Virus record (IMG/VR): IMGVR_UViG_2713896775_000011
Coordinates: 1-10,681 of that record
Strand: one strand, 5' to 3'
Length of the DNA stretch: 10,681 nucleotides
DNA from: a virus
Lineage: Duplodnaviria; Heunggongvirae; Uroviricota; Caudoviricetes
Each line of letters opens with the position of its first letter. Position 1 is the stretch's first letter. The position numbers were made by a program, and so were the translations under genes. A model generated the notes under the pieces. The model was given only the letters and a program-made list of their open reading frames with translations. It was not told the DNA's origin and did no database searches. Below, one piece after another: positions 1 to 10,681 of this stretch.

Positions 1-258
1 GGAGGCGTACCGAATATTGGCGATATCCGCATCACTGGTGGAGATGGAGGCGACGGTCAGTCCGGAAATATCGGCGTCAGCGGTGAAGGCGGAACATCGC
101 ACTGGGGCGGCGGTGGACGCGCAGGCGCTGGCGGTGGTGTTAGTGGTAAGGCATATGGTTCAGGTGGCGGTGGCGCATACGATGCCGGTTATAGCGGAAC
201 CAGTATGACAGGCGGGAAAGGTGCTGCTGGGATTTGTATTATCGAGGAGTTTGCATAA
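1..258 (+). CDS. Tail fibre protein, C-terminal fragment (5' end lies outside the window); glycine-rich distal region
   Basis: Frame 1 is open from the window edge to TAA at 256-258 and translates to GGVPNIGDIRITGGDGGDGQSGNIGVSGEGG...GKGAAGICIIEEFA. The stop overlaps the ATG of the downstream assembly gene (TAATG), the usual fibre/chaperone arrangement. Assignment rests on position and composition, not on a recognised motif. Confidence 0.5.
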   Translation, partial: GGVPNIGDIRITGGDGGDGQSGNIGVSGEGGTSHWGGGGRAGAGGGVSGKAYGSGGGGAYDAGYSGTSMTGGKGAAGICIIEEFA

Positions 259-668
259 TGAATGCGTCATATGCAGTTATTGAAAATGGGATGCTTGTGA
301 ATGTCATTGTCTGGGATGGCGAGGATGAATTCACAGTGCCGGATAATCAGCAGCTCATTAATATTTCTGATATCAGTGAGCATCCCGGAATCGGCTGGGC
401 GTATTCAGACGGGGGATTTACTGCGCCGCTCCCTCCGGAACGTTCTCATGATGAACTGGTAGCTGACGCTGAACAGAAAAAACAGTCGCTGATAGACGCA
501 GCAATGACCAATATCAGCGTGATTCAGTTAAAGCTGCAGGCCGGGCGCAAACTGACGCAAGAAGAAACTACCCGACTTAACGTTGTGCTGGATTATATCG
601 ACGCTGTGACGGCAACAGATACCAGCACCGCACCGGATGTCATCTGGCCTGAACTGCCGGAGGAGTAG
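258..668 (+). CDS. Tail fibre assembly protein (Tfa / P2 gpG-like chaperone), 136 aa
   Basis: ATG at 258-260 (the ORF track start at 234 is a TTG). The C-terminal half (...AEQKKQSLIDAA...TATDTSTAPDVIWPELPEE) matches the conserved Tfa C-terminal domain ending in a (D/S)TS-APD-I-WP motif; the N-terminal ~60 aa is divergent. Stop TAG at 666-668. Confidence 0.8.
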   Translation: MNASYAVIENGMLVNVIVWDGEDEFTVPDNQQLINISDISEHPGIGWAYSDGGFTAPLPPERSHDELVADAEQKKQSLIDAAMTNISVIQLKLQAGRKLTQEETTRLNVVLDYIDAVTATDTSTAPDVIWPELPEE

Positions 669-827: not shown

Positions 828-1303
828 TTAACAGTTAATCCACCAGTATGTGCCGGGTGCCTGCGGGTAAGTGGCGGCGGCAACCTCGTGAACCATCCCC
901 CAATCCAGAGCTGTGGAGGCATTGGCTATGGTGGCGGCGGAGATAACCTCCTTCCACTCATTGCGGCTCTTACTGAGCTCAATCTGACTCTCCAAAATAT
1001 CGACAAAACGCTCCAGGTCATTATTGAGACACGCGCTCCACTCACTGACGCGTGAGTGATCCACGCTTGGGCCCATCAAGCCCCAGTGAAAAGGATGCAG
1101 TAAGAACCGACTCCCAGGATTCGCCTTACGTTCAGACCCTGCAAGAAAAATGATATTAGCGACTGATTCAACATTGCTAAGGTTATGGGTCTTTACTGGG
1201 ATTGGTAGGGCCTTTAGAAAGTGATAAGCAGTAAAACCTGCAACGAGGTCACCGCCCGGACTGGAAATGTAAATGTTTAACTCAGTCGCCCCCTGATTGA
1301 TAG
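828..1303 (-). pseudogene. ClpP-fold (Clp protease-like) serine peptidase, 5'-truncated fragment
   Basis: The minus-strand ORF contains NIYISSPGGDLVAGFTAYHF...VESVANIIFLAGSERKANPGSRFLLHPF...ALDWGMVHEV, which aligns with the ClpP core (YINSPGG...AG...Y...GQAASMGAFLLTAG...SRVMIHQP...EYGLVD), including the Ser and His positions. Only about 25 residues precede the SPGG motif, against roughly 90 in ClpP. The only in-frame start is a GTG at 1358 with no SD, lying inside the invertase remnant. Confidence 0.55.
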
Positions 1304-1543
1304 CTCCGAGAACTGATTGTTGAACGAACAAAAGCTGGCCTGGAAGCTGCTCGCGCACAGGGACGAATTGGTGGACGACGTCCCAAACTTACACCAGAAC
1401 AATGGGCGCAGACGGGTAGGTTAATAGCGGCAGGGGAATCGCGCCGGAGGGTTGCCATAATTTATGATGTTGGGATATCTACGCTTTACAAAAAATTCCC
1501 AGCGACCAGAGATAAGAATTCCGGCACGCATGGCCGGTTATAA
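1304..1543 (+). pseudogene. Serine-recombinase DNA invertase (Pin/Gin/Hin family), C-terminal remnant only; catalytic domain absent
   Basis: Frame 2 from 1304 (directly after TAG 1301-1303) to TAA 1541-1543 reads LRELIVERTKAGLEAARAQGRIGGRRPKLTPEQWAQTGRLIAAGESRRRVAIIYDVGISTLYKKFPATRDKNSGTHGRL. This closely matches the C-terminal hinge and HTH domain of Gin/Pin as I remember them. There is no start codon, and no frame upstream carries the N-terminal catalytic domain. Confidence 0.85.
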
Positions 1544-1628
1544 CCGTGCTGGCCGTGTGTATCGAGTACGGTCACTTTTAACGGTGCTGTAGCACGGTCA
1601 GTTATGGTGGTGTATTACGGAAGACGAA

Positions 1629-1650
1629 GCGGGCAATGGCCCGCTTTTCT
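1629..1650 (+). terminator. Rho-independent terminator-like hairpin (gcgggc-aatg-gcccgc followed by TTTTCTT)
   Basis: Perfect 6-bp GC-rich stem at 1629-1634 / 1639-1644 followed by a T-tract on the + strand. It lies just downstream of the invertase remnant and abuts the stop codon of U. Confidence 0.4.
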
Positions 1651-2099
1651 TATATCGAAAGGTTGGTTTTCACCAGAGAGAAGAGATCGTCGGTGGTGGT
1701 TTCAGCCAGCTTTTCCCGTATGTCCTCGCTTACCCGTTTCAGGTTGAGCGTGAAATCAATTTTCTTTGCCTTCCCGTCCTTAAAAAACTCCGTCCGGTTT
1801 TGCGTGATCTGCTCAATTACATACATGCCGTAGATCCTGCCCGTGCCTTCTATCAGGGGCCACGGGCGCCCGGAAAAAGCCATAGTTTCCAGCATGACAA
1901 GCGACACATCACCGCCGCTTATTTCGGGGTACAGCGTGCCGCTGAGTACGAACGGTTCTTCATCTGCGCCGATGAACTGATAGCGCGGGGATTTCCCCAC
2001 GCGATCGTTTTTGACGTGCCGCCAGGAGTTGGTTTTATTCGCACTCTGGTAAGGTGTGGTTTGCAGTGAAAAGGGGAACATCCCCAGAATCATCATCAT
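1650..2099 (-). CDS. U: Phage tail protein gpU (P2 U-like), 149 aa
   Basis: MMMILGMFPFSLQTTPYQ...SWRH...FIGADEEPFVLSGTLYPEISGG...RPWPLIEGTGRIYGMYVI resembles P2 gpU as recalled. It sits immediately downstream of the tape measure gene with a 9-nt gap and an AAGG SD. Confidence 0.85.
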   Translation of the reverse strand: MMMILGMFPFSLQTTPYQSANKTNSWRHVKNDRVGKSPRYQFIGADEEPFVLSGTLYPEISGGDVSLVMLETMAFSGRPWPLIEGTGRIYGMYVIEQITQNRTEFFKDGKAKKIDFTLNLKRVSEDIREKLAETTTDDLFSLVKTNLSI

Positions 2100-2108
2100 G
2101 ATATTGCC

Positions 2109-5054
2109 TTAGACGTGATCGGTCAGTTGGGAGCGCTTGCGCCGGTCGGCCTGTTGCTTCGCTAACGCAAGTTCTTCGCGCACGCGCCTGATAATGGTTT
2201 CTTCATCCAGTTTCTGGCCGCTAAAGTCGAAGTTAAGGTTATATACATCGCCACCCGGAGCAGGCATCAGCGCAGCGACGGAAGCCGCAGACGGAGACGC
2301 CGAAACAGGCATCCGTGCGGCGGGCTTCTCAACCTGCCAAGGCGTAACGGAAGCGATCAGCGATCCGGCCTGCTGCGTCACCCAATCCGTAAGGGATGGT
2401 AGCTGGCGCTGCGCCTGCTTAAGCGGTTCCGAATATCCGCCCCGGATCGGGATATAGGGCTGCTTATTCTTGAAGACGATTTCGCCGGGCCCGTCTTTCT
2501 TCTCCGTGGTATTGGTGGCGATCTTGTCCAGGCTGCTGCTCATCTTCGGCACGATGTTGGCCGGGCCCTTGAGCGAGTTAATTAAGCTTTCCTGCTTTTT
2601 CTGCTGGTCAATGGCCTGCTGTTGCTTCTGGTTGGTTTTCTTCTGCTGATCGTCTTTCGGCGACCAGTTCCAACCCTTTTTAACCATTTTCTTTTGCTGC
2701 GGATCCCACTCCCAGACAACAGGGTCTTTGTGCATACTTTCCGCAGCTTGCTGCGCTGCTTTTGTTGCGTCGGGGATGGCGCCGAGTTTCTCAAGTATCC
2801 ATCCAATCCCGTTAGCGACGGCTTGAATAGGTAGCGTCAGCGCGCTAATTGCGGCCCCTACAACCTTGCCGAACGTTTCCCCGGCACTGGTGCAGGATGC
2901 CAGCGCTTCACTGGAAAACTGGATCGGTTCCAGCAGTTTGGTAAACCATTCCCAGACCCCACTGATCGCGTTGCCGATACTGTCAAAAATCGGGGCCAGT
3001 GGTGCAAATACGGCGTTAAATGCCTGCGTGATTGGTTGAAGGCCAGTCATCAGGCCGGTAAAGAAGCCGCTGAAAAACGCCTGTATGGGTTGCCAGAATT
3101 TAATGACGGCCACTGCTGCCGCAGCAAAGAGCGCAATCAGCCCCCAGACGGGCGCAGAAATACCAGCCAGTAGAGTAATAAGCGGGCCGAATACCATGCG
3201 ACCGGCGCTTAATAATGCCTGCATAGGCGAGCCAGCAAGCCACTGGAACGCACCACCCAGGCGCATTACTCCGCCAGTCAGCCGCGCTATTCCTCCTTCC
3301 CCAGCCAGCGTGGTGAAGCTGAGGCGAACAAGTGCCATCGGGCCCAGCACTGCGCCGATGGACAGCATCAGGCCACCCACGACAACCAGCAACGCGCCTA
3401 TGGCTGCGGTGACTTTCATGATTGAACCAACCAGCGCCGGGTTTGCCTCAACCCAACGCCGGACGCTGCCAACCACCTTACTGACGGTAAGCATGATATC
3501 CATCAGCGGTTCGCGGAGCGTTTCCCCTGCTGAACTGAATGCGTTAACCGCGCCGGTTTTGGTCAGTTGCCACTGAGCAGAAAGGGAGGCTTTATTGATA
3601 TCGGATTCCCGATTCATGGAACCTTTAGCGGCAGCACCCTGCGTCAGTTCGATCTGGCGCCGAAGTTCGGGCAGGTTGTTCGCAAGTTTCTGTGCATCAT
3701 CCCCGAACTCTTTACCGAAAATCTGGGTAAGGTTGGCTACCTGCTTATCTGGTGCAAGTTTTTTGGACGCTTCCAGCACTGAAATGATCGTGCCCATCGC
3801 GTCCACTGACATGCTTTTCTGGACTTTCTCAGCATTGACGCCGATCTCATCCAGAGCACCCAAAAATTTATCGCTTTGTACTGTGGCGATCGACAGTTCA
3901 CGCACCATTGCATTGGTGGCGCTGGCTGCAACTTCGGCAGGTGATCCAAGCGTCAGAAAGGTGGAGCCCAGCGCGGCGGCTTGCTTGTAATCCAGTTGGC
4001 TGGCAAGCCCGCCAACGCGCTGGAGCACGTCGATAATATCGGAGCCTTTCGACTTCGCGTTATCGTCCAGGTAGTTTATGGCGTCGCCCAACTGTTCAAT
4101 ATTCTGGGTAGGGATTTTATACAGCCCGGCAATCTTACCGAGACTTTCAGAAAGCTGATCGGCGGGCAGTTCAAAGGCTACCGAAGCCTTTGCCGCCATG
4201 CTGGCAAAAGCCAGCAGATCGGCTTTTTGCTTTTGCCACGGATCATTGCTGTTTGCGACGCCCATACGCGCGCCACCTTCGACCAGTGCGGCATAGTCAA
4301 CAGCACCGTTTGCCATTGGCAGCTTTTCGCTGGCATCCATGATCGCCCGCTGCATTTCTTCATATTGCGGGGTGCGGTTGCCGCTGTCGTCACGCAAGCC
4401 GTTTACCTGTTTGGCTACGCCCTTCATTGCGTCTTCAAGGCTGCTGTAGGATTTAACCGCAGCGGCGACAGGTGCTAGGGTTGCCGCCCCTACTGCGGCG
4501 GTTTTCATCCCCCCGCTCATCATCTTTTCGCCGGTTTCTTTGGCGCGGCTGTAACGGGCCTGCGCCTGGTTAACAGCGTCAAGCCGTCGCTGCTGTTCGG
4601 CAAGCTGGCGGTTGTATTGCGCGGTGCGCTGGTTGATCTGTTCCGTCGCCCGGCTGGCGCTGCTGATCGCAATGCCTTCGCTGTAGAAGCTGGCCCGCAA
4701 CTGGTTAAGCTGCGTCTGCTCGCCTTTCTGCTGCTGGGTTAACTGGCGAATGGCTGCACGTTGCTGATTGAGGGCGGCAACCTGTTCGGCGCTGCGCTGG
4801 CGTAACGGGCCATAGGCCGCCGCCATTTGCCGGGCCTGTTCTTTCGCCTGGGCCAGTTGTTCGGTGGTTTTTTTATTGGCTGCGGTGAGGCGGTCAAAGC
4901 TGGTTGCCTGACGCTCAAGCCCTTTAATGCTGGTTTTAGTCTGGTTGATTTGAGACGCCAACGCGGCGGCACTCTGGCGCGCCGCGTTGACAGGGCGGGA
5001 CATATTATTCAGGGCGCTGAATGCCACCCTGATATTTAAATTGCGGTCTGCCAT
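2109..5054 (-). CDS. T: Tail tape measure protein (P2 gpT-like), 981 aa
   Basis: Long ORF in the T position between E/E' and U. It has a coiled-coil, Q/A-rich N-terminus, a central hydrophobic helix-rich segment and a K/Q-rich C-terminal part. ATG at 5052-5054 is immediately preceded by the E' stop; a GGAG-type SD lies upstream. Confidence 0.9.
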   Translation of the reverse strand: MADRNLNIRVAFSALNNMSRPVNAARQSAAALASQINQTKTSIKGLERQATSFDRLTAANKKTTEQLAQAKEQARQMAAAYGPLRQRSAEQVAALNQQRAAIRQLTQQQKGEQTQLNQLRASFYSEGIAISSASRATEQINQRTAQYNRQLAEQQRRLDAVNQAQARYSRAKETGEKMMSGGMKTAAVGAATLAPVAAAVKSYSSLEDAMKGVAKQVNGLRDDSGNRTPQYEEMQRAIMDASEKLPMANGAVDYAALVEGGARMGVANSNDPWQKQKADLLAFASMAAKASVAFELPADQLSESLGKIAGLYKIPTQNIEQLGDAINYLDDNAKSKGSDIIDVLQRVGGLASQLDYKQAAALGSTFLTLGSPAEVAASATNAMVRELSIATVQSDKFLGALDEIGVNAEKVQKSMSVDAMGTIISVLEASKKLAPDKQVANLTQIFGKEFGDDAQKLANNLPELRRQIELTQGAAAKGSMNRESDINKASLSAQWQLTKTGAVNAFSSAGETLREPLMDIMLTVSKVVGSVRRWVEANPALVGSIMKVTAAIGALLVVVGGLMLSIGAVLGPMALVRLSFTTLAGEGGIARLTGGVMRLGGAFQWLAGSPMQALLSAGRMVFGPLITLLAGISAPVWGLIALFAAAAVAVIKFWQPIQAFFSGFFTGLMTGLQPITQAFNAVFAPLAPIFDSIGNAISGVWEWFTKLLEPIQFSSEALASCTSAGETFGKVVGAAISALTLPIQAVANGIGWILEKLGAIPDATKAAQQAAESMHKDPVVWEWDPQQKKMVKKGWNWSPKDDQQKKTNQKQQQAIDQQKKQESLINSLKGPANIVPKMSSSLDKIATNTTEKKDGPGEIVFKNKQPYIPIRGGYSEPLKQAQRQLPSLTDWVTQQAGSLIASVTPWQVEKPAARMPVSASPSAASVAALMPAPGGDVYNLNFDFSGQKLDEETIIRRVREELALAKQQADRRKRSQLTDHV

Positions 5055-5515
5055 TTAGTGATCTCCACCACTGCGCGCAGCCGCCTGATCACGCCATAAC
5101 AGTATTTCCTGTACCGTCATGGCGTCCATCTCTACCGGCCGCCAGTGGAATATGACGGCGATATCTGCCATCAGGTCTTCTATGCGTTCGCAGGGGCATC
5201 GGATGATTCGTTGCCCGTATCCGTCGCGGTCAGATCCGAAGAGGGTTGCAAAAAATCAACCACCGCGTTGGCTAGCTGGCAAAAATCCCAGGTATCCATA
5301 CGGGCAATCTCATCGGCGGTTAGTGCCGGAGCGGTAACGCGGGGCAGCAGAATAACCAGCGCGTCATAGTTGGAAGTCAGCACGTCATAGGCTTTTAAGC
5401 CGCGCAGTGATCCAGCCTGTTTAAGCACGGAAGTGATCGCCACTTCGGTGATTTTGGTCTTACCGCGCGTAATAGGGGCGGTAAGAATAACGGTGTTTTC
5501 TTTGGTCTTGCTCAT
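5055..5515 (-). CDS. E': gpE+E' fusion product made by programmed -1 ribosomal frameshift (about 152 aa)
   Basis: The slippery heptamer TTTTTTG lies on the minus strand at + coordinates 5249-5255, inside E codons 88-89. The -1 frame from 5249 stays open for 64 codons (ATLFGSDRDGYGQRIIRCPCERIEDLMADIAVIFHWRPVEMDAMTVQEILLWRDQAAARSGGDH) and stops at TAA 5055-5057, directly abutting the T start codon. Confidence 0.7.
5180..5515 (-). CDS. E: Tail assembly chaperone gpE (P2 E-like), 110 aa
   Basis: MSKTKENTVILTAPITRGKTKITEVAIT...LRGL...ALVILLPRVTAPALTADE resembles P2 gpE. AGGAAA SD upstream; stop TAG at 5180-5182. Confidence 0.85.
   Translation of the reverse strand: MSKTKENTVILTAPITRGKTKITEVAITSVLKQAGSLRGLKAYDVLTSNYDALVILLPRVTAPALTADEIARMDTWDFCQLANAVVDFLQPSSDLTATDTGNESSDAPANA
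5249..5255 (-). promoter_or_regulatory. -1 programmed frameshift slippery site (TTTTTTG) for E/E'
   Basis: Heptamer read directly on the minus strand within E; its position near the E 3' end and the open -1 frame match the P2 E/E' and lambda G/GT paradigm. Confidence 0.65.
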
Positions 5516-5529
5516 GGTGCCGGGTTTCC

Positions 5530-6045
5530 TTATAGGCCGATGTTAGCGCGGTGTTTTTCCAGCACATCCACACCGGCAACTTTGTAGATCATGTTGAGCA
5601 CATCAACTTCGATAATCTCTTCGCCGTTGATGGTCAGCTTGTAATAGGTGTTTTTCAGGGTGTACTTATGCGAAGTGTCATCCCCGACTTTTGCCGAACC
5701 GGGATCCAGTTCAGTGAAGCGGCCACGCGTCTGGATTTCGCACGGTACAGCGTCGCCGGTTGCGTCGTCCTGATAGGAGCCAGCAAAACGTGTTTGCATC
5801 CCGTCCGCAGTGGTAACGCCCCATTTTTTCAGCAATCCGGCATCCAGACCGCCAAGCGTGATATCCATATCCAGGGCGCCAGCGTCGAAGCCAAGATCCA
5901 CCGCAACCGAACCCGGCATACCACCCGCCTGGTAGTCTTCGGTTTTTTTTGTGAGTTTGGCGGGGGTGATTTCCGGCACCATGCCGAAGTAGTTATCCCC
6001 GTCAAAGAACATATTGAAATATTTGAGTTTCTTAGGCAGTGCCAT
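5530..6045 (-). CDS. FII: Tail tube protein (P2 gpFII-like), 171 aa
   Basis: MALPKKLKYFNMFFDGDNYFGMVPEITPAKLTKK...RFAGSYQDD...LEKHRANIGL resembles P2 FII, including the ...HR.NIGL C-terminus. It lies 12 nt downstream of FI. Confidence 0.9.
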   Translation of the reverse strand: MALPKKLKYFNMFFDGDNYFGMVPEITPAKLTKKTEDYQAGGMPGSVAVDLGFDAGALDMDITLGGLDAGLLKKWGVTTADGMQTRFAGSYQDDATGDAVPCEIQTRGRFTELDPGSAKVGDDTSHKYTLKNTYYKLTINGEEIIEVDVLNMIYKVAGVDVLEKHRANIGL

Positions 6046-6057
6046 AAGCGCCCCCGG

Positions 6058-7251
6058 TTAGTTATTCACTGCGCTGGAAAACGTAGCGAAATATTCGTCG
6101 GTGAACTCCTGTACCAGGCTGAGATTTTCCAGCGGTGGAACAGGGGTGTAGTTGTACTTAATGGTCAGTTGACCATTGCGCAGGGTTTCCGAGGTATTCG
6201 GTTCCGGGTCATACCAGCAGCGGGCGCCCAGCAGCTTGCCAGCCGTCACATATGAGGTCAGCTTCTTATTGATGCCGTCCACAATGTCCTTAACCAGCGA
6301 CGGGGTAAGCGGTTTATCAACATAGGCGAAATGGGCTTCGGCGACGGTATCCGCAACGATCTGCGCGGTTCGGGTATAGCTTTCGAAGATATACGTTTCC
6401 GCGTCGCAGGTACGCGATCCCCAGATGCGGTAGCCGTCCTGCTTGATCAGCGTGGTAACGCCTGCTGCGTTCAGTTCGTCGGCGTCGGTATCGGTGCCCT
6501 GCAACGTGAAATAGATATCCCGATCCATCCCCAGCACGTTATTAACGGGCACGTTGGAAATGGTTTTATGCCAGCCCTGCGTTGCGTCGATTTTGGCGCG
6601 CATCCCAACAGCATGGGCACCCACGGGCACGGTGGCATTGGCCCCGGCGTTGGTGTCGTAGCAGATGAAATTAGGCCAGATAACCATCATTTCACGCTGG
6701 GAGAACTGTTCGCGGTATTCCTTCACTTCGGCGATTGTGTTGCAGCCGTTCGCAGCCACGTAAGCAAATGCGCGCAGCTTTTCGGCAATGACGCCGAGTT
6801 GTGCGGCTACCGCTTCCGTATCAAGCCCAGGAACAGCCAGTACACGCGGGCGCACGCCTACGCGCATTTCGGCAGACAGCAGCGCGTACATGCCGGTAAA
6901 GCGCCCGTTTGCATCGGTGCCGCCAATAACCAGTTGATCCTGTGTCTGTGCGGTACCGCCTTCTGGTGGAACAATTTTTGACGCATCGGCAACGCGGATC
7001 ACAATGGTTTGCGGGCTGGTCTGGTCTGAAATCGCTTTCAGGGTGGTAAACAGGGTGCCGGTTTTACCTGCCTTGCCCAGCATGTTAGCCACGCGGGTGA
7101 TCAGTACAGGGGTATCCAGCGGGAACGCTGTTTCGTCCGCATCATCAGCGGTGCAGACAACGCCGATCACCGCCGAATCAATGTCGGTGATCATCGTGCT
7201 AAGGTCGGTGGTTTCCGTGACGGTTACACCGTGATGGTAGTTAGTGGCCAT
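6058..7251 (-). CDS. FI: Contractile tail sheath protein (P2 gpFI-like), 397 aa
   Basis: MATNYHHGVTV...VIGVVCTADDAD...VPGLDTEAVAAQL...KLRAFAYVA...WHKT.SNV...YTPVPPLENL matches P2 FI (MSDYHHGVQV...) along its length as recalled. GAGG SD upstream of ATG 7249-7251. Confidence 0.9.
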   Translation of the reverse strand: MATNYHHGVTVTETTDLSTMITDIDSAVIGVVCTADDADETAFPLDTPVLITRVANMLGKAGKTGTLFTTLKAISDQTSPQTIVIRVADASKIVPPEGGTAQTQDQLVIGGTDANGRFTGMYALLSAEMRVGVRPRVLAVPGLDTEAVAAQLGVIAEKLRAFAYVAANGCNTIAEVKEYREQFSQREMMVIWPNFICYDTNAGANATVPVGAHAVGMRAKIDATQGWHKTISNVPVNNVLGMDRDIYFTLQGTDTDADELNAAGVTTLIKQDGYRIWGSRTCDAETYIFESYTRTAQIVADTVAEAHFAYVDKPLTPSLVKDIVDGINKKLTSYVTAGKLLGARCWYDPEPNTSETLRNGQLTIKYNYTPVPPLENLSLVQEFTDEYFATFSSAVNN

Positions 7252-7323
7252 GTATTTGCCTCGCCAGTTTAATGACTGCGAATATCATTGCGGCAATGGC
7301 AGGCCGATGCGATGAATAAGGGT

Positions 7324-7341
7324 TGTCAGCAACCTGCAACA
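7324..7341. promoter_or_regulatory. Ogr-type late-promoter activator site: dyad TGT-N12-ACA
   Basis: tgt(7324-7326)-cagcaacctgca-aca(7339-7341) matches the TGT-N12-ACA element of P2 late promoters. Its centre lies 81 bp from the FI ATG and 76 bp from the D ATG, between the two divergent genes. Confidence 0.4.
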
Positions 7342-7408
7342 ATGACGGGGCGTTGTTCATGCGCGCGCGCGTGGCGACGATGTACCCCATCATGATGAAG
7401 GGGTTGAT

Positions 7409-8527
7409 ATGGACACGACAGAAAACCGATATTCGCCGCGCCCGGCGTTCAGTATTGAAATTGAAGGTAATCAGCTTACGGCGCTGGATAACCGGCTGAT
7501 CTCCCTTTCCCTGACAGATAACCGGGGCTTTGAAGCGGACACGCTGGATCTGACTCTGGATGATGTAGACGGGCAGGTAGCATTACCATCACGCGGCGCA
7601 AAGATATCGGTGGCGCTGGGCTGGGATAATGATCCATTGGTTTTTAAGGGCGTCTATACGGTTGACGAGATCGGACACGCCGGCCCGCCTGACCAGCTAA
7701 CGATCAGTGCCAGAAGTGCAGATTTCCGCGATACCTTCAACGTGAAGAGGGAATATAGCTGGCACGATATTACCGTGGGGGATGTGGTCGCCAGCATTGC
7801 CAGCCGCTACGATCTGCGTGCGGGTGTCAGCGAAGAACTGGCGAAGATTGAGATAGACCACGCCGATCAGACGAGTGAATCAGATATCAGCTTCTTAACG
7901 CGCATGGCCGAAATGCTGGGCGCGGTGGCAACCATTAAAAACGGTATGCTTCTGTTTATCACGCCGGGCAAGGGAGTGACGCAAAGCGGCAAGCCGTTGC
8001 CGGTGATCGAGATCGTCAGGTCAAGCGGTGATAAACATCGGTTTAACGTAGCTGACCGCGACGCGTACACGGGCGTAACTGCATACTGGCTTGATCTCAA
8101 CTTTGGCAAAAAACCATCCACTACCGTGAAGAAAACCACCCGCAGACGACGAACCAGCCAGGCCAAAAAGAAAGAGCCCGCATCAAGCAAAAAAGAGGGT
8201 GATTATCTGGCCGGGGCCGAAGGTAACGTTTTTGTTATCCGTAAAACCTTCAAGACGGAAAAGGCGGCGAAGCGGGCCGCTGCGGCTAAGTGGCGGGAGT
8301 TGCAGCGTGGAGCGGCGACGTTCAGCATCACCCTGGCGCGTGGCCGCGCGGATTTGTACCCGGAACAGCCTGCCAGCGTCTACGGCTTTAAGTCCACGAT
8401 CGACAGTGGGAACTGGACGATAACGCGGTGCGTTCACGATATTGGCGGGGGAGGGTTTACCACATCGCTGGAACTGGAAGTAAAAATCGACGACTGGACA
8501 GCGGAGAGTGACGATTCAACGTCTTAA
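7409..8527 (+). CDS. D: Phage tail/late protein gpD (P2 D-like), 372 aa
   Basis: MDTTENRYSPRPAFSIEIEGNQLTALDNRLISLSLTDNRGFEADTLDLTLDD... is characteristic of the P2 gpD family. AAGGGG SD 5 nt upstream of the ATG. Confidence 0.9.
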   Translation: MDTTENRYSPRPAFSIEIEGNQLTALDNRLISLSLTDNRGFEADTLDLTLDDVDGQVALPSRGAKISVALGWDNDPLVFKGVYTVDEIGHAGPPDQLTISARSADFRDTFNVKREYSWHDITVGDVVASIASRYDLRAGVSEELAKIEIDHADQTSESDISFLTRMAEMLGAVATIKNGMLLFITPGKGVTQSGKPLPVIEIVRSSGDKHRFNVADRDAYTGVTAYWLDLNFGKKPSTTVKKTTRRRRTSQAKKKEPASSKKEGDYLAGAEGNVFVIRKTFKTEKAAKRAAAAKWRELQRGAATFSITLARGRADLYPEQPASVYGFKSTIDSGNWTITRCVHDIGGGGFTTSLELEVKIDDWTAESDDSTS

Positions 8528-8575
8528 GCGTTATACTTGCGTTGATATTAACCAGTCCTGAAAGGAGGCCCGCGT

Positions 8576-8818
8576 ATGGCAATGCGCTGTCCTCGCTGCC
8601 GTGCAATAGCAAAAACCAGAACCAGCGTTGAGCTGAGTTTGCTTGTACGGCGCAGCTATCACCAGTGTCAAAATATGTTGTGCGGGTACTGTTTCACCAG
8701 CATGACGGAAATAGACGGTTCACTAAATCAGACCCAGCCAGCGCCCGGCGCGATGGTGCCACAAGAAGCTTTTCCACGAAGTCACCACGGCGAAGATCAG
8801 TTATCGCTGGCATTATAA
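8576..8818 (+). CDS. ogr: Ogr/Delta-family zinc-finger late-gene transcriptional activator, 80 aa
   Basis: MAMRCPRCRAIAKTRTSVELSLLVRRSYHQCQNMLCGYCF has the Cys-x2-Cys...Cys-x4-Cys Ogr signature and resembles P2 Ogr (MFHCPLC...RYHQCQN.NC). Strong AAAGGAGG SD 7 nt upstream. Confidence 0.85.
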   Translation: MAMRCPRCRAIAKTRTSVELSLLVRRSYHQCQNMLCGYCFTSMTEIDGSLNQTQPAPGAMVPQEAFPRSHHGEDQLSLAL

Positions 8819-8820
8819 AA

Positions 8821-8850
8821 GCGGCCCCTAAATGGGGCCGTTATTTATTT
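8821..8850. terminator. Bidirectional rho-independent terminator shared by ogr (+) and the convergent membrane-protein gene (-)
   Basis: gcggcccc-taaa-tggggccg hairpin followed by TTATTTATTT on the + strand and by CTTTTA on the minus strand. The minus gene's stop codon (8845-8847) lies inside the T-tract. Confidence 0.6.
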
Positions 8851-9492
8851 CATGTTTATGGCTACAAACCTTGATCGTGTAAGGTTTTCACTTAAATATT
8901 GATCGCCACTATCCCCGGCCTTTTTGCCCCAGATATCACACGAAGATTCACCGCCCTGAAAAACGTAGCCTTTGGTTAAAATGTCGTTAGTCACATAAAT
9001 ATGATCGAATAAACCAGCCTTCCAAGCCCTGTTAGATTCCCCGTGATTGAAATAGCTGATGCATACGGACTGAACGGCACTTTTCGCCTGTAGTTCTTCT
9101 ATGCTGTCAAAATTGAATGCAACTACTAAGGCTTTGTTGTAAATGACTGGTTTAACTGTGAGATTCAGATCTCCGAGCGCCTTGGATAAGGCAAGGGGAA
9201 GTTGATTAGTCGCTTCTGAAAAGTCGATAGTGGTTGTTAATTGTTCTTTGGGTTTAGCCGCGGGTTGTGTTTGTTCTGTGTTTGTCACTGCTGGCTGGGG
9301 TTTATTTTCAGCAACAGCTTTCGGCGCGACTGGTGCAACCATTGAACCTATGATTGCTGCCAAGAGGCACACCCCGAAGTAGATAGCAGATGAGCGCTTT
9401 CGATTTGGCATAAAAACCCATTTGGGATTGATTAGCCCAACCCAAAAAGCGATCCCAGCAACAGCGGCGATAACGGTGATGATTGTTTCCAT
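8845..9492 (-). CDS. Hypothetical membrane-anchored protein, 215 aa (two predicted N-terminal TM helices, Pro/Gln-rich linker, globular C-terminal domain)
   Basis: ATG at 9490-9492 with a GGAGGG SD 7 nt upstream. Hydrophobic segments IITVIAAVAGIAFWVGLI and AIYFGVCLLAAIIGSMVAPVA. The DNA looks clearly AT-richer than the flanking tail genes and fieF (by eye). No family recognised. Confidence 0.6.
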   Translation of the reverse strand: METIITVIAAVAGIAFWVGLINPKWVFMPNRKRSSAIYFGVCLLAAIIGSMVAPVAPKAVAENKPQPAVTNTEQTQPAAKPKEQLTTTIDFSEATNQLPLALSKALGDLNLTVKPVIYNKALVVAFNFDSIEELQAKSAVQSVCISYFNHGESNRAWKAGLFDHIYVTNDILTKGYVFQGGESSCDIWGKKAGDSGDQYLSENLTRSRFVAINMK

Positions 9493-9670
9493 TGAGTACC
9501 CTCCGTATTAAGGCGGGTATTATTGTCGATGGTGCTCAAAAACGGAACAGCCAAGCGCGGTGCGCCTGGCTGCTTCTTTGTCGAAGTGTAGTCAAAATGT
9601 AGACGAAGTTTAGAATAAATCCTTTTATTCCATTATGTTACTGGCTGGATTTCTTCACCATCCCTGTCTT

Positions 9671-9698
9671 CCCCCACATGATGTGGGGGTTTTTTTTA
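9671..9698 (+). terminator. Rho-independent terminator (cccccacat-g-atgtggggg followed by T9) with no + strand gene upstream in the window
   Basis: Perfect 9-bp inverted repeat followed by nine T residues on the + strand, about 80 bp upstream of fieF. Confidence 0.5.
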
Positions 9699-9778
9699 TC
9701 CTCAATTTGCCTGCTGCTTAATGCATTGCAGATGATTTGCTTCCGTTATACTAGCGTCAGTTGATAGCGGGAGTATTT

Positions 9779-10681
9779 ATGAATCAATCTTATGGACGGC
9801 TGGTCAGTCGGGCGGCGATTGCTGCGACGGCGATGGCTTCGTTGCTATTGCTGATTAAAATTTTTGCATGGTGGTATACCGGGTCGGTGAGTATTCTCGC
9901 CGCGCTGGTGGATTCGCTGGTGGATATCGGCGCGTCGTTGACGAATTTACTGGTGGTGCGATATTCCCTGCAACCTGCCGACGATAATCACTCGTTTGGT
10001 CACGGTAAAGCAGAGTCCCTCGCGGCGCTGGCGCAAAGTATGTTTATCTCCGGTTCGGCACTATTCCTGTTTTTGACGGGTATTCAACATCTGATATCTC
10101 CAACACCGATGACAGATCCAGGCGTCGGGGTTATCGTGACAATTGTGGCGCTAATTTGTACGATTATCCTTGTCTCGTTTCAGCGTTGGGTGGTGCGGCG
10201 GACGCAAAGCCAGGCGGTGCGGGCTGATATGCTACATTACCAGTCTGATGTTATGATGAACGGCGCAATTCTGCTGGCGCTGGGGTTGTCCTGGTACGGC
10301 TGGCATCGCGCCGATGCTCTGTTTGCATTGGGAATCGGCATCTATATTTTATATAGCGCGTTACGCATGGGATATGAGGCGGTACAGTCATTACTGGATC
10401 GCGCATTGCCTGATGAGGAACGGCAAGAAATTATTGATATCGTGACTTCCTGGCCGGGTGTTAGCGGCGCTCACGATCTTCGCACGCGGCAGTCAGGGCC
10501 GACCCGCTTTATTCAGATTCATTTGGAAATGGAAGACTCTCTGCCTTTGGTTCAGGCACATATGGTGGCGGATCAGGTAGAGCAGGCTATTTTACGGCGT
10601 TTTCCGGGATCGGATGTAATTATCCATCAGGACCCCTGTTCCGTCGTACCCAGGGAGGGTAAACGGTCTATGCTTTCATAA
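9779..10681 (+). CDS. fieF: Cation-diffusion-facilitator ferrous-iron/zinc efflux transporter FieF (YiiP), 300 aa
   Basis: [56 protein letters not shown]... matches E. coli FieF as recalled, including the CDF signature and the HxxxD metal site. True start is ATG 9779 (GGGAG SD 5 nt upstream); the ORF track start at 9761 is a TTG. Confidence 0.95.

Follow-up and report, generated by a model that had tools for sequence, protein, structure and literature searches.

Lineage-native inversion of the FI-U tail gene block in a P2-like Escherichia coli prophage and a predicted bidirectional late control region between FI and D

The window analyzed in this work, i.e., the whole stretch of 10,681 nucleotides of the IMG/VR virus record IMGVR_UViG_2713896775_000011, carries phage tail genes in the order V..G rightward, U-T-E/E'-FII-FI leftward and D-ogr rightward. 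Its genes and the features of the left junction are as follows (coordinates, strand, identity and best profile match):

234-668, plus strand: tail-fibre assembly (G-like) ORF (phrog_188, 2.6e-30, profile positions 43-182 of 207)
828-1306, minus strand: ClpP-like protease cargo gene with the 5' end deleted (Pfam CLP_protease, 3.3e-12)
1307-1543, plus strand: C-terminal remnant of a Hin/Gin-type DNA invertase, converging on U (Pfam HTH_7, 1e-12)
1626-1647, no strand: GC-rich terminator-like hairpin, 9-bp stem followed by a T-run on the plus strand
1650-2099, minus strand: tail gene U (phrog_76, 1.9e-64)
2109-5054, minus strand: tape-measure gene T (phrog_28, 3.7e-156)
5055-5515, minus strand: tail chaperones E and E+E', the E ORF at 5180-5515 (phrog_103, 2.8e-34)
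5530-6045, minus strand: tail tube gene FII (phrog_55, 9.1e-66)
6058-7251, minus strand: tail sheath gene FI (phrog_23, 2.6e-123)
7409-8527, plus strand: tail/baseplate hub gene D (phrog_52, 3.8e-155)
8576-8818, plus strand: ogr, zinc-finger late-gene activator (phrog_603)

Homologues of FI, FII, E, T, U, D and Ogr are all present at full length (PHROG matches from 1e-14 to 1e-156), and the tail genes of the window constitute a P2-like (Peduoviridae) tail module. A -1 slippery heptamer, TTTTTTG, is located upstream of T at 5255-5249 on the minus strand, with E' extending to the stop codon at 5057-5055; as this heptamer is identical to the annotated P2 frameshift site, a programmed -1 frameshift is predicted for E/E', and the E' piece is also included in the annotation of phage SEN5. 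The Ogr protein is identical to that encoded in the E. coli CX12 genome, where it is annotated as 'ogr/Delta-like zinc finger family protein', and a promoter/terminator scan placed a promoter-like site upstream of ogr (8508-8537) and a bidirectional terminator downstream of it (8820-8842). The Rfam scan of the entire window returned no family match. In the annotated record of P2, the genes H, G, FI, FII, E, T, U, D and ogr all reside on one strand, so the FI-U block of the window is inverted relative to P2: the one-strand operon FI-FII-E-T-U-D is not found here, FI-U and D being on the minus and plus strands, respectively. The initial annotation of this DNA had described the same picture, namely FI-U on the minus and G, D and ogr on the plus strand, junctions at about 1544-1650 and 7252-7408, U ending against an invertase remnant, and FI and D diverging across 157 bp. 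Analysis of ORFs and PHROG matches confirmed the gene identities and strands, the spacer is exactly of this length (7252-7408), and the HTH_7 remnant adjoins the 3' end of U.

The G-like ORF is the final gene of the rightward V-W-J-I-H-G block and lacks the N-terminal ~40 residues, as follows from both the PHROG profile match and the CX12 annotation ('tail fiber assembly protein, missing N-terminus'). For the two cargo ORFs, PADLOC and Pfam revealed a Clp-protease domain only, with no PADLOC match and nothing defence-related. Alignment with CX12 showed a 375-bp deletion between positions 1306 and 1307, which took the 5' end of the ClpP-like gene and further shortened the invertase remnant. The frame of the latter, counted from position 1322, encodes the C-terminal HTH_7 domain of resolvases/invertases and ends with a stop at 1541-1543; in CX12 the same place is annotated as 'recombinase family protein, missing N-terminus'. 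The left junction is marked by the hairpin at 1626-1647, with the invertase remnant and U converging from its two sides. Phage P88 has an analogous hairpin between its invertase and U, the P88 invertase being intact, situated at the position of the remnant and likewise convergent with U.

Comparison with P2-like phages, the check that the initial annotation had proposed, revealed that Salmonella phages SEN4 and SEN5 are collinear with positions 1452-9700 of the window across both junctions at 93.9% nucleotide identity, with strands annotated alike, while the first 1.45 kb of the window have no match to these phages. P88 and 3LV2017 are annotated with the inverted FI-U layout as well, and the FI/D junction is collinear with the window in Chuche, KSP20, phiT5282H, Klebsiella Kp48xx, Shae_phiSM and others. 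Among complete E. coli genomes, 31 matched the junction query over at least 80% of its length (nearly all at no less than 95% identity), and in 16 of the genomes 80% or more of the entire window is present next to fieF. The block was inverted in all 80 IMG/VR loci, whose D identity ranges from 65 to 100%, as well as in 44 of the 52 species-level loci across Enterobacterales, which were taken from one-genome-per-species contigs (in two others it is inverted and D is split; the collinear order was seen in none). Retrieval from IMG/VR with D of P2 as the query gave only loci at least 98% identical to P2, which were uninformative on diversity and were left out. The P2-type collinear order was found in P2, 186, SEN8, Kapieceevirus, Duonihilunusvirus, RSA1 and a Mannheimia phage. 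All sampled relatives with D identity of at least 61% show the orientation of the window, which upholds the alternative named in the initial annotation, a layout native to the lineage. The inverted order is the normal, ancient order of a large P2-like branch including SEN4/SEN5, P88 and their relatives; in this respect the finding is ordinary. The papers on SEN4/SEN5, P88, PP4 and the Citrobacter prophage make no mention of the inverted block. The carriers of this order, in which it is fixed and ancestral, are Enterobacterales phages including Senquatrovirus, Xuanwuvirus (P88), Reginaelenavirus (3LV2017) and KSP20. According to the ICTV genus criterion, members of a genus share genome-wide nucleotide identity of at least about 70%; for Senquatrovirus, the 93.9% identity to SEN4 extends over 8.2 kb of the window, which comprises the right end of the prophage only. 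Taken together, we are highly confident that the window represents the right end of a P2-like (SEN4/SEN5-type) E. coli prophage at fieF with the lineage-native inverted order and a predicted bidirectional FI/D spacer. The features of this spacer are the following:

7252-7408, no strand: divergent FI/D region of 157 bp, putative control region and right junction
7281-7286, minus strand: predicted -10 element GATATT of the leftward late promoter PF, a conserved GATnAT-like hexamer in the box-anchored alignment
7324-7341, no strand: TGTCAGCAACCTGCAACA, a TGT-N12-ACA dyad, predicted Ogr site, single match in the window
7353-7381, plus strand: predicted rightward late promoter PD, with elements at fixed box offsets in 15 diverse relatives

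The spacer is 157 bp long in P88 too, and its length varies from 140 to 174 bp across the inverted clade. The TGT-N12-ACA box is kept in 55 of 58 unique clade spacers at 73-77 nt from the FI ATG (a raw estimate of 69 nt was obtained in a few loci with a mis-set FI start), and in the P88-like members it is degenerate by one mismatch. From the box centre to the FI ATG there are 81.5 nt in the window versus 82.5 in P2 PF and 186 pJ, and the predicted PF geometry agrees with the P2 PF start site. Since a generic sigma-70 scan of the spacer did not recognize the late-promoter architecture, giving only two matches of low value, box-anchored comparison was used instead. It revealed a conserved -10-like hexamer on either side of the box, ~44 nt away and approximately 35 nt past the respective box end; the transcription starts are predicted near 7274 for PF and near 7388 for PD. 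The PD elements comprise the -35-like TTGTTC (7353-7358), a (GC)5 run (7361-7371) and the -10-like GACGAT (7376-7381), followed by the ribosome-binding site of D, AAGGGG, at 7398-7403. This layout nearly matches PV and PP of SEN5 (box, TTGTT and (GC)n), the TTGTT + (GC)n element being conserved and common to PD, PV and PP in the inverted clade. In the L065/L071 subgroup the predicted PD start coincides with the annotated ATG of D, so that either the mRNA is leaderless or the start codon of D is mis-set. A 50-aa ORF at 7241-7393 on the minus strand, annotated as hypothetical in SEN5, was rejected as a gene: it has no family match and overlies the promoter region, and the spacer length differs by non-multiples of three among close relatives.

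The 157-bp spacer probably acts as a bidirectional late control region, in which a single palindromic, putative Ogr box (7324-7341) is located ~56-58 bp from each of the two predicted starts, PF (~7274) and PD (~7388). We infer that one common Ogr site drives the divergent late promoters of FI and D, the Ogr dependence of PD and both start sites being predictions from sequence. With one box serving both promoters, FI-U and D(-ogr) would both be turned on late, and it is presumably due to such a bidirectional region that the inverted arrangement works. On balance, yet with considerable reservation, we favour a joint proposal: that the activation of two divergent promoters by one Ogr box evolved independently for a second time in the FI/D spacer, that the inversion could be fixed because the box is bidirectional, and that TTGTT + (GC)n is an element of the core promoter hitherto undescribed for Ogr-type late promoters. 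In the open literature searched, we found no discussion of the clade-wide inversion or of the promoter logic of the spacer.

The layout could be native to the lineage with D nevertheless transcribed from an independent promoter (either constitutive or under some other control) and with the dyad serving PF alone. Such an organization would agree with the box-D ATG distance varying more (55-82 nt) than that between the box and the FI ATG (80-88 nt in most loci), and with the -35-like TTGTC on the D side, an element normally absent from P2 late promoters. However, the -35-like and -10-like elements of the D side stay at fixed offsets from the box even when the leader length changes, the box + TTGTT + (GC)n layout also precedes V and P in SEN5, and the symmetric geometry of 111-114 bp is the same as in P2 PP/PO. 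Considering these facts, we regard an independent promoter of D as unlikely and proceed with the common Ogr site.

In the phylogenetic trees of FI, FII, U and D (neighbour-joining, 19 taxa, without bootstrap), every inverted genome fell into one clade nested among the collinear ones, with the window inside it, which points to a single old and fixed inversion; the origin in one event is suggested by this sequence comparison. In the ancestral FI-FII-E-T-U-D operon, the FI-U segment would have been inverted once, breaking the translationally coupled U/D junction and bringing the PF promoter region immediately in front of D. The spacer between the invertase and FI in SEN8 is ~100 bp long, and since the sequence between the box and D is not simply derivable from the short invertase-FI spacer of the collinear relatives, the event may have been other than a clean two-break inversion.

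A Hin/Gin-type invertase next to the block raises the question of whether FI-U is a programmed invertible segment of this enzyme or, in a weaker form, whether the invertase produced the ancestral inversion via a cryptic site. The intact invertase gene of P88 directly adjoins the left junction, and the collinear SEN8 and YenM_201.16 have the invertase immediately upstream of FI, so the left breakpoint adjoins the invertase gene. Against this role, neither the window nor P88 has inverted repeats flanking the block: none links 1544-1650 with 7252-7408 in the window, none was found at the P88 junctions, and the long repeats of P88 are only those of the H/G tail-fibre segment. Hix/gix-like cores (AAACCNNGGTTT, up to two mismatches), which the initial annotation had suggested looking for at the junctions together with short inverted repeats, occur at chance frequency (five matches versus 4.6 expected, none meaningful), and comparison with the annotated 'Mu-like crossover site' of 186 gave no usable match. 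The invertase of the window is a non-functional remnant with the C-terminal HTH domain alone left (1307-1543), and the opposite orientation was observed in none of the ~130 inverted-clade loci. Thus, the block shows no crossover sites, no functional invertase in the window and no occurrence in both orientations, i.e., none of the hallmarks of Hin/Gin/Cin-type invertible segments, and we find a role of the invertase in either form very improbable.

A recent inversion in this prophage alone (the initial annotation had read the locus as an inversion of ~5.7 kb) was suggested by the order unlike that of P2 and would suit the decayed surroundings (the truncated G-like gene, the ClpP-like and invertase remnants and the 375-bp deletion), but it is hardly credible: SEN4/SEN5, which are inducible, and dozens of independent genomes have identical junctions, the intact P88 has the same FI..U orientation (intact relatives of this kind being what the initial annotation had named as refuting its reading), the spacer is a conserved and organized promoter region rather than a scar, and no inverted repeats link the two junctions. 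Mis-assembly or mis-joining of the contig at 1544-1650 or 7252-7408, also considered in that annotation, has nothing in its favour beyond the departure from the P2 order and is practically negligible, as both junctions recur, exact to the base, in complete genomes of independent assembly and likewise in phage genomes, KMi029 matches positions 1308-10681 unbroken at 99.1%, and the junction segment matches strain 730V1 at 99.3%. Hence, the strands, spacer and junctions initially reported stand, while their reading as a recent rearrangement gives way to that of an old, clade-defining inversion.

For genome scanning this means that P2 cannot serve as the template everywhere: FI-U is inverted throughout an entire branch of Peduoviridae in Enterobacterales, and a scan should report such a layout neither as a rearrangement nor as an error of assembly. 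The locus also provides a modest example of an operon which was split by inversion and is predicted to be still co-regulated, as a symmetric activator site moving with one half of the operon could serve the stranded D on its other side. The prediction of the shared site is easily testable in SEN4/SEN5 or P88.

Among known systems, SEN4/SEN5 (Peduoviridae, Senquatrovirus) have the same gene order and strands as the window, and SEN5 has the same 157-bp spacer and TGTCAGCAACCTGCAACA box. They differ in that an intact tail-fibre assembly gene is directly convergent with U in SEN5, whereas the window has the ClpP-like and invertase remnants there, and in the host, the window prophage residing in E. 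coli at fieF. Escherichia phage P88 and Klebsiella phage 3LV2017 share the inverted FI-U and the divergent FI/D junction, but their FI and D proteins are only 56-63% identical to those of the window. The F operon of P2 and 186 (transcribed from PF or pJ, respectively) comprises homologous genes (FI 53%, D 49%) with the same internal FI..U order, the same E/E' slippery heptamer, and ogr following D with its own promoter-like site and terminator; in these phages, however, the operon ends with D, which overlaps the stop of U, while in the window it is detached, lies on the strand opposite to FI-U and, having its own ribosome-binding site and a predicted promoter, heads its own transcription unit. 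The closest parallel to the spacer is PP/PO of P2, for which the P2 record has a single annotation, 'activator binding site; pO, pP promoters', with both divergent starts at a distance of 55.5 nt from this site. The P2 sites were mapped experimentally and serve P and O, whereas those of the window, predicted from sequence, would serve FI and D; in both cases one dyad is located midway between divergent late units, ~55-58 nt from each start, with the starts separated by 111 bp in P2 and by a predicted ~114 bp in the window.

The window represents the right end of an E. coli P2-like prophage, since its tail genes are followed by ogr and then by the host gene fieF, which has at least 99% identity in most E. 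coli genomes. The ORF listing and the PHROG profile searches agreed with the initial annotation on genes and strands, and the features are as follows.

234-668, plus strand: G-like tail-fibre assembly ORF (PHROG)
828-1306, minus strand: ClpP-like gene (Pfam CLP_protease, 3.3e-12; PHROG 'head maturation protease')
1307-1543, plus strand: C-terminal HTH domain of a Hin/Gin-type invertase (Pfam HTH_7, 1e-12)
1626-1647: GC-rich hairpin between the invertase remnant and the U stop codon
1650-2099, minus strand: U (PHROG)
2109-5054, minus strand: T (PHROG)
5180-5515, minus strand: E (PHROG)
5530-6045, minus strand: FII (PHROG)
6058-7251, minus strand: FI (PHROG)
7409-8527, plus strand: D (PHROG)
8576-8818, plus strand: ogr (PHROG)
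8820-8842: bidirectional terminator 3' of ogr
8845-9492, minus strand: 215-aa leftward ORF between ogr and the attachment site
9671-9689: hairpin with a T-run, within ~9656-9700, upstream of fieF
9761 onward: host gene fieF

FI and D diverge across a spacer of exactly 157 bp (7252-7408), the length read initially, and E contains a P2-type slippery heptamer, TTTTTTG (5255-5249), which suggests that the E/E' frameshift arrangement is retained. The tail module is homologous to that of P2 (53% identity for FI, 49% for D). The opposition of the U-FI block to the P2 order, as described initially, stands, while its reading as a rearrangement or artefact is not supported, since the order is clade-wide. 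The P2 feature of a single F operon is absent from the window, which is a trait of the clade and no anomaly.

The inverted block is the usual arrangement in a known phage lineage, a reading offered initially as an alternative, and the prophage belongs to the Peduoviridae, being of the SEN4/SEN5 type. SEN4 and SEN5, two inducible phages of Salmonella, are collinear with window positions 1452-9700 at 93.9% identity, and their annotation has V to G and D running rightward and U-T-E'-E-FII-FI leftward, with a spacer of 157 bp. The layout is also present in P88 (Xuanwuvirus) and Klebsiella phage 3LV2017 (Reginaelenavirus), and a 1.3-kb query across the FI/D junction was collinear in Chuche, KSP20, phiT5282H, several Klebsiella phages, Shae_phiSM and others. 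In 31 complete E. coli genomes one place covered at least 80% of this query, nearly always with 95% identity or more. Sixteen complete genomes had at least 80% of the whole window beside fieF, among them KMi029, which matched positions 1308-10681 as a single piece (99.1%). A search of IMG/VR with the D protein gave 80 loci (65-100% identity), and in all of them U-T-E-FII-FI lay directly upstream of D on the opposite strand. A survey of one genome per species (52 loci) covered the Enterobacterales hosts Salmonella, Citrobacter, Hafnia, Enterobacter, Pectobacterium, Photorhabdus, Xenorhabdus, Yersinia, Providencia, Morganella, Brenneria, Serratia, Klebsiella, Erwinia, Pantoea and Edwardsiella; the order was inverted in 44 loci and inverted with an interrupted D in two, six held D remnants without tail genes, and none had the collinear FI-U/D order. 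Many public genomes show this arrangement in their annotation, and the literature searched, with Casjens and Grose (2016) outside its scope, yielded no published comment on it.

D fragments without nearby FI-U genes occurred in Yersinia ruckeri, Erwinia amylovora, a Brenneria and a Providencia (L214, L215, L218, L222), three of the four genomes also keeping ogr; these fragments look like remnants of prophage ends. In the relatives' loci L004-L024 the tape-measure gene T was mosaic with respect to window 2109-5054: where D was 96-100% identical, T was only 60-100% and U 78-100% identical, a mismatch that speaks for recombination inside the inverted block.

Seven phages have FI-FII-E-T-U-D annotated in collinear order (P2, 186, SEN8 of Felsduovirus, a Kapieceevirus, a Duonihilunusvirus, Ralstonia phage RSA1 and a Mannheimia phage). 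In them the U stop overlaps the D start and the invertase, where present, directly precedes FI on the same strand. In each of four neighbour-joining trees, of FI, FII and U from inside the block and D from outside it, all 12 sampled inverted genomes formed one clade amid collinear genomes. The simplest history would be that the FI-U segment inverted once, in the ancestor of the clade, with one breakpoint at the U/D junction and the other separating the PF promoter of FI from the invertase/tail-fibre region; as the trees carry no bootstrap support, we only infer this single event from the sequences. An ancient inversion by the invertase is improbable and found no support: the junctions, where inverted repeats and hix/gix-like sites had been proposed as a check, are not connected by inverted repeats in either the window or P88, whose only long inverted repeats are those of the H/G tail-fibre segment, and hix-like cores occur at chance frequency. 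The same findings bear on the block as an invertible switch, for which we likewise found no support: the opposite orientation is absent among ~130 clade loci, and the invertase of the window is only a remnant. Mis-assembly and a recent private inversion are excluded, an inversion having been the reading favoured initially, because the junctions recur in phages, E. coli genomes, IMG/VR and the species survey; intact SEN4/SEN5 and P88 in the same orientation are the kind of evidence that had been named initially as refuting it.

The interval from the G-like gene to U holds a short antisense remnant of a tail-fibre-assembly gene, the ClpP-like gene and the invertase HTH domain. U does end against this invertase remnant, as initially described, with the hairpin in between. 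Relative to E. coli CX12 (L003 4307-4681), alignment revealed a deletion of 375 bp at window 1306|1307, by which the ClpP-like gene lost its 5' end and the invertase pseudogene a further part; the listed ORF 828-1358 hence begins with an artefact of fusion. In this prophage the tail-fibre/invertase region is decaying, the tail genes remaining intact. The ClpP-like gene, without a PADLOC match, occupies the site of the invertible alternative tail-fibre genes of relatives such as P88, and its position is the counterpart of the P2 Z/fun cargo site.

At the right end, the 215-aa ORF matched only phrog_3403 and phrog_3807, both of unknown function, gave no Pfam or PADLOC match and has a GC content of 0.43-0.46, lower than in the phage genes; it probably represents cargo, a moron, in the ogr/att hotspot. 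The attR core likely lies at ~9656-9700, the SEN5 match stopping at 9700 and host-flank matches starting at 9656.

TGT-N12-ACA is the activator motif of the P2 family. Its sole occurrence in the window, the predicted Ogr box, is at 7324-7341, inside the FI/D spacer. Of 58 unique clade spacers, 55 have the box, nearly always at 73-77 nt from the start codon of FI (raw offsets of 69 in a few loci reflect an FI start mis-set by the tblastn estimate), and P88-like boxes are degenerate. In a box-anchored comparison of 15 diverse spacers, conserved -10-like hexamers lay ~35 nt outside each box end. The elements in the window are as follows.

7286-7281, minus strand: GATATT, -10-like hexamer on the FI side
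7353-7358, plus strand: conserved -35-like TTGTC/TTGTT, 5' of GACGAT
7361-7371: alternating GC run, (GC)4-5 in PD/PV/PP, between TTGTT and the -10 of the predicted D promoter, PD
7376-7381, plus strand: GACGAT, -10-like hexamer on the D side
7398-7403, plus strand: AAGGGG, Shine-Dalgarno of D

Leftward transcription is predicted to start near 7274 and rightward transcription near 7388, ~114 bp apart, with the box centre 56-58 nt from each start. It seems fairly probable from these motifs that FI-U and D(-ogr) are both driven from a single shared Ogr site, which would keep D co-regulated with the other tail genes despite the split; the degenerate boxes of P88-like members and, in one subgroup, the coincidence of the predicted PD start with the annotated D ATG are caveats to this model. 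A 50-aa ORF (7241-7393, minus strand; annotated in SEN5 as hypothetical protein SEN5_27) over the FI start and most of the spacer is probably not a gene, because it has no family match and spacer lengths of close relatives differ by non-multiples of three.

The GC run is kept across the clade in the D-side alignment. In SEN5 (L001), GC runs lie at 76-83, 6361-6370 and 17890-17899; the box, TTGTT and (GC)n also stand 5' of V and P, at the late promoters PV and PP, and every GCGCGCGC in 30.5 kb of SEN5 adjoins one of three intergenic boxes. In the SEN5 P/O spacer (L001 40-170) the annotated P and O start codons are 99 bp apart with the box mid-way; P2-like geometry would put the transcription starts at or inside these codons. 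At least one of the two is probably annotated too far upstream. The sole mildly new element is the predicted bidirectional Ogr-dependent promoter with its GC-run signature. Its geometry is close to that of known systems: the FI ATG is 81.5 nt away from the box centre, the equivalent spacing for the activator sites annotated at P2 PF and 186 pJ being 82.5 nt, and P2 has a single annotated 'activator binding site; pO, pP promoters', 55.5 nt from each divergent start, the PP and PO starts being 111 bp apart as compared with the ~114 bp predicted here.
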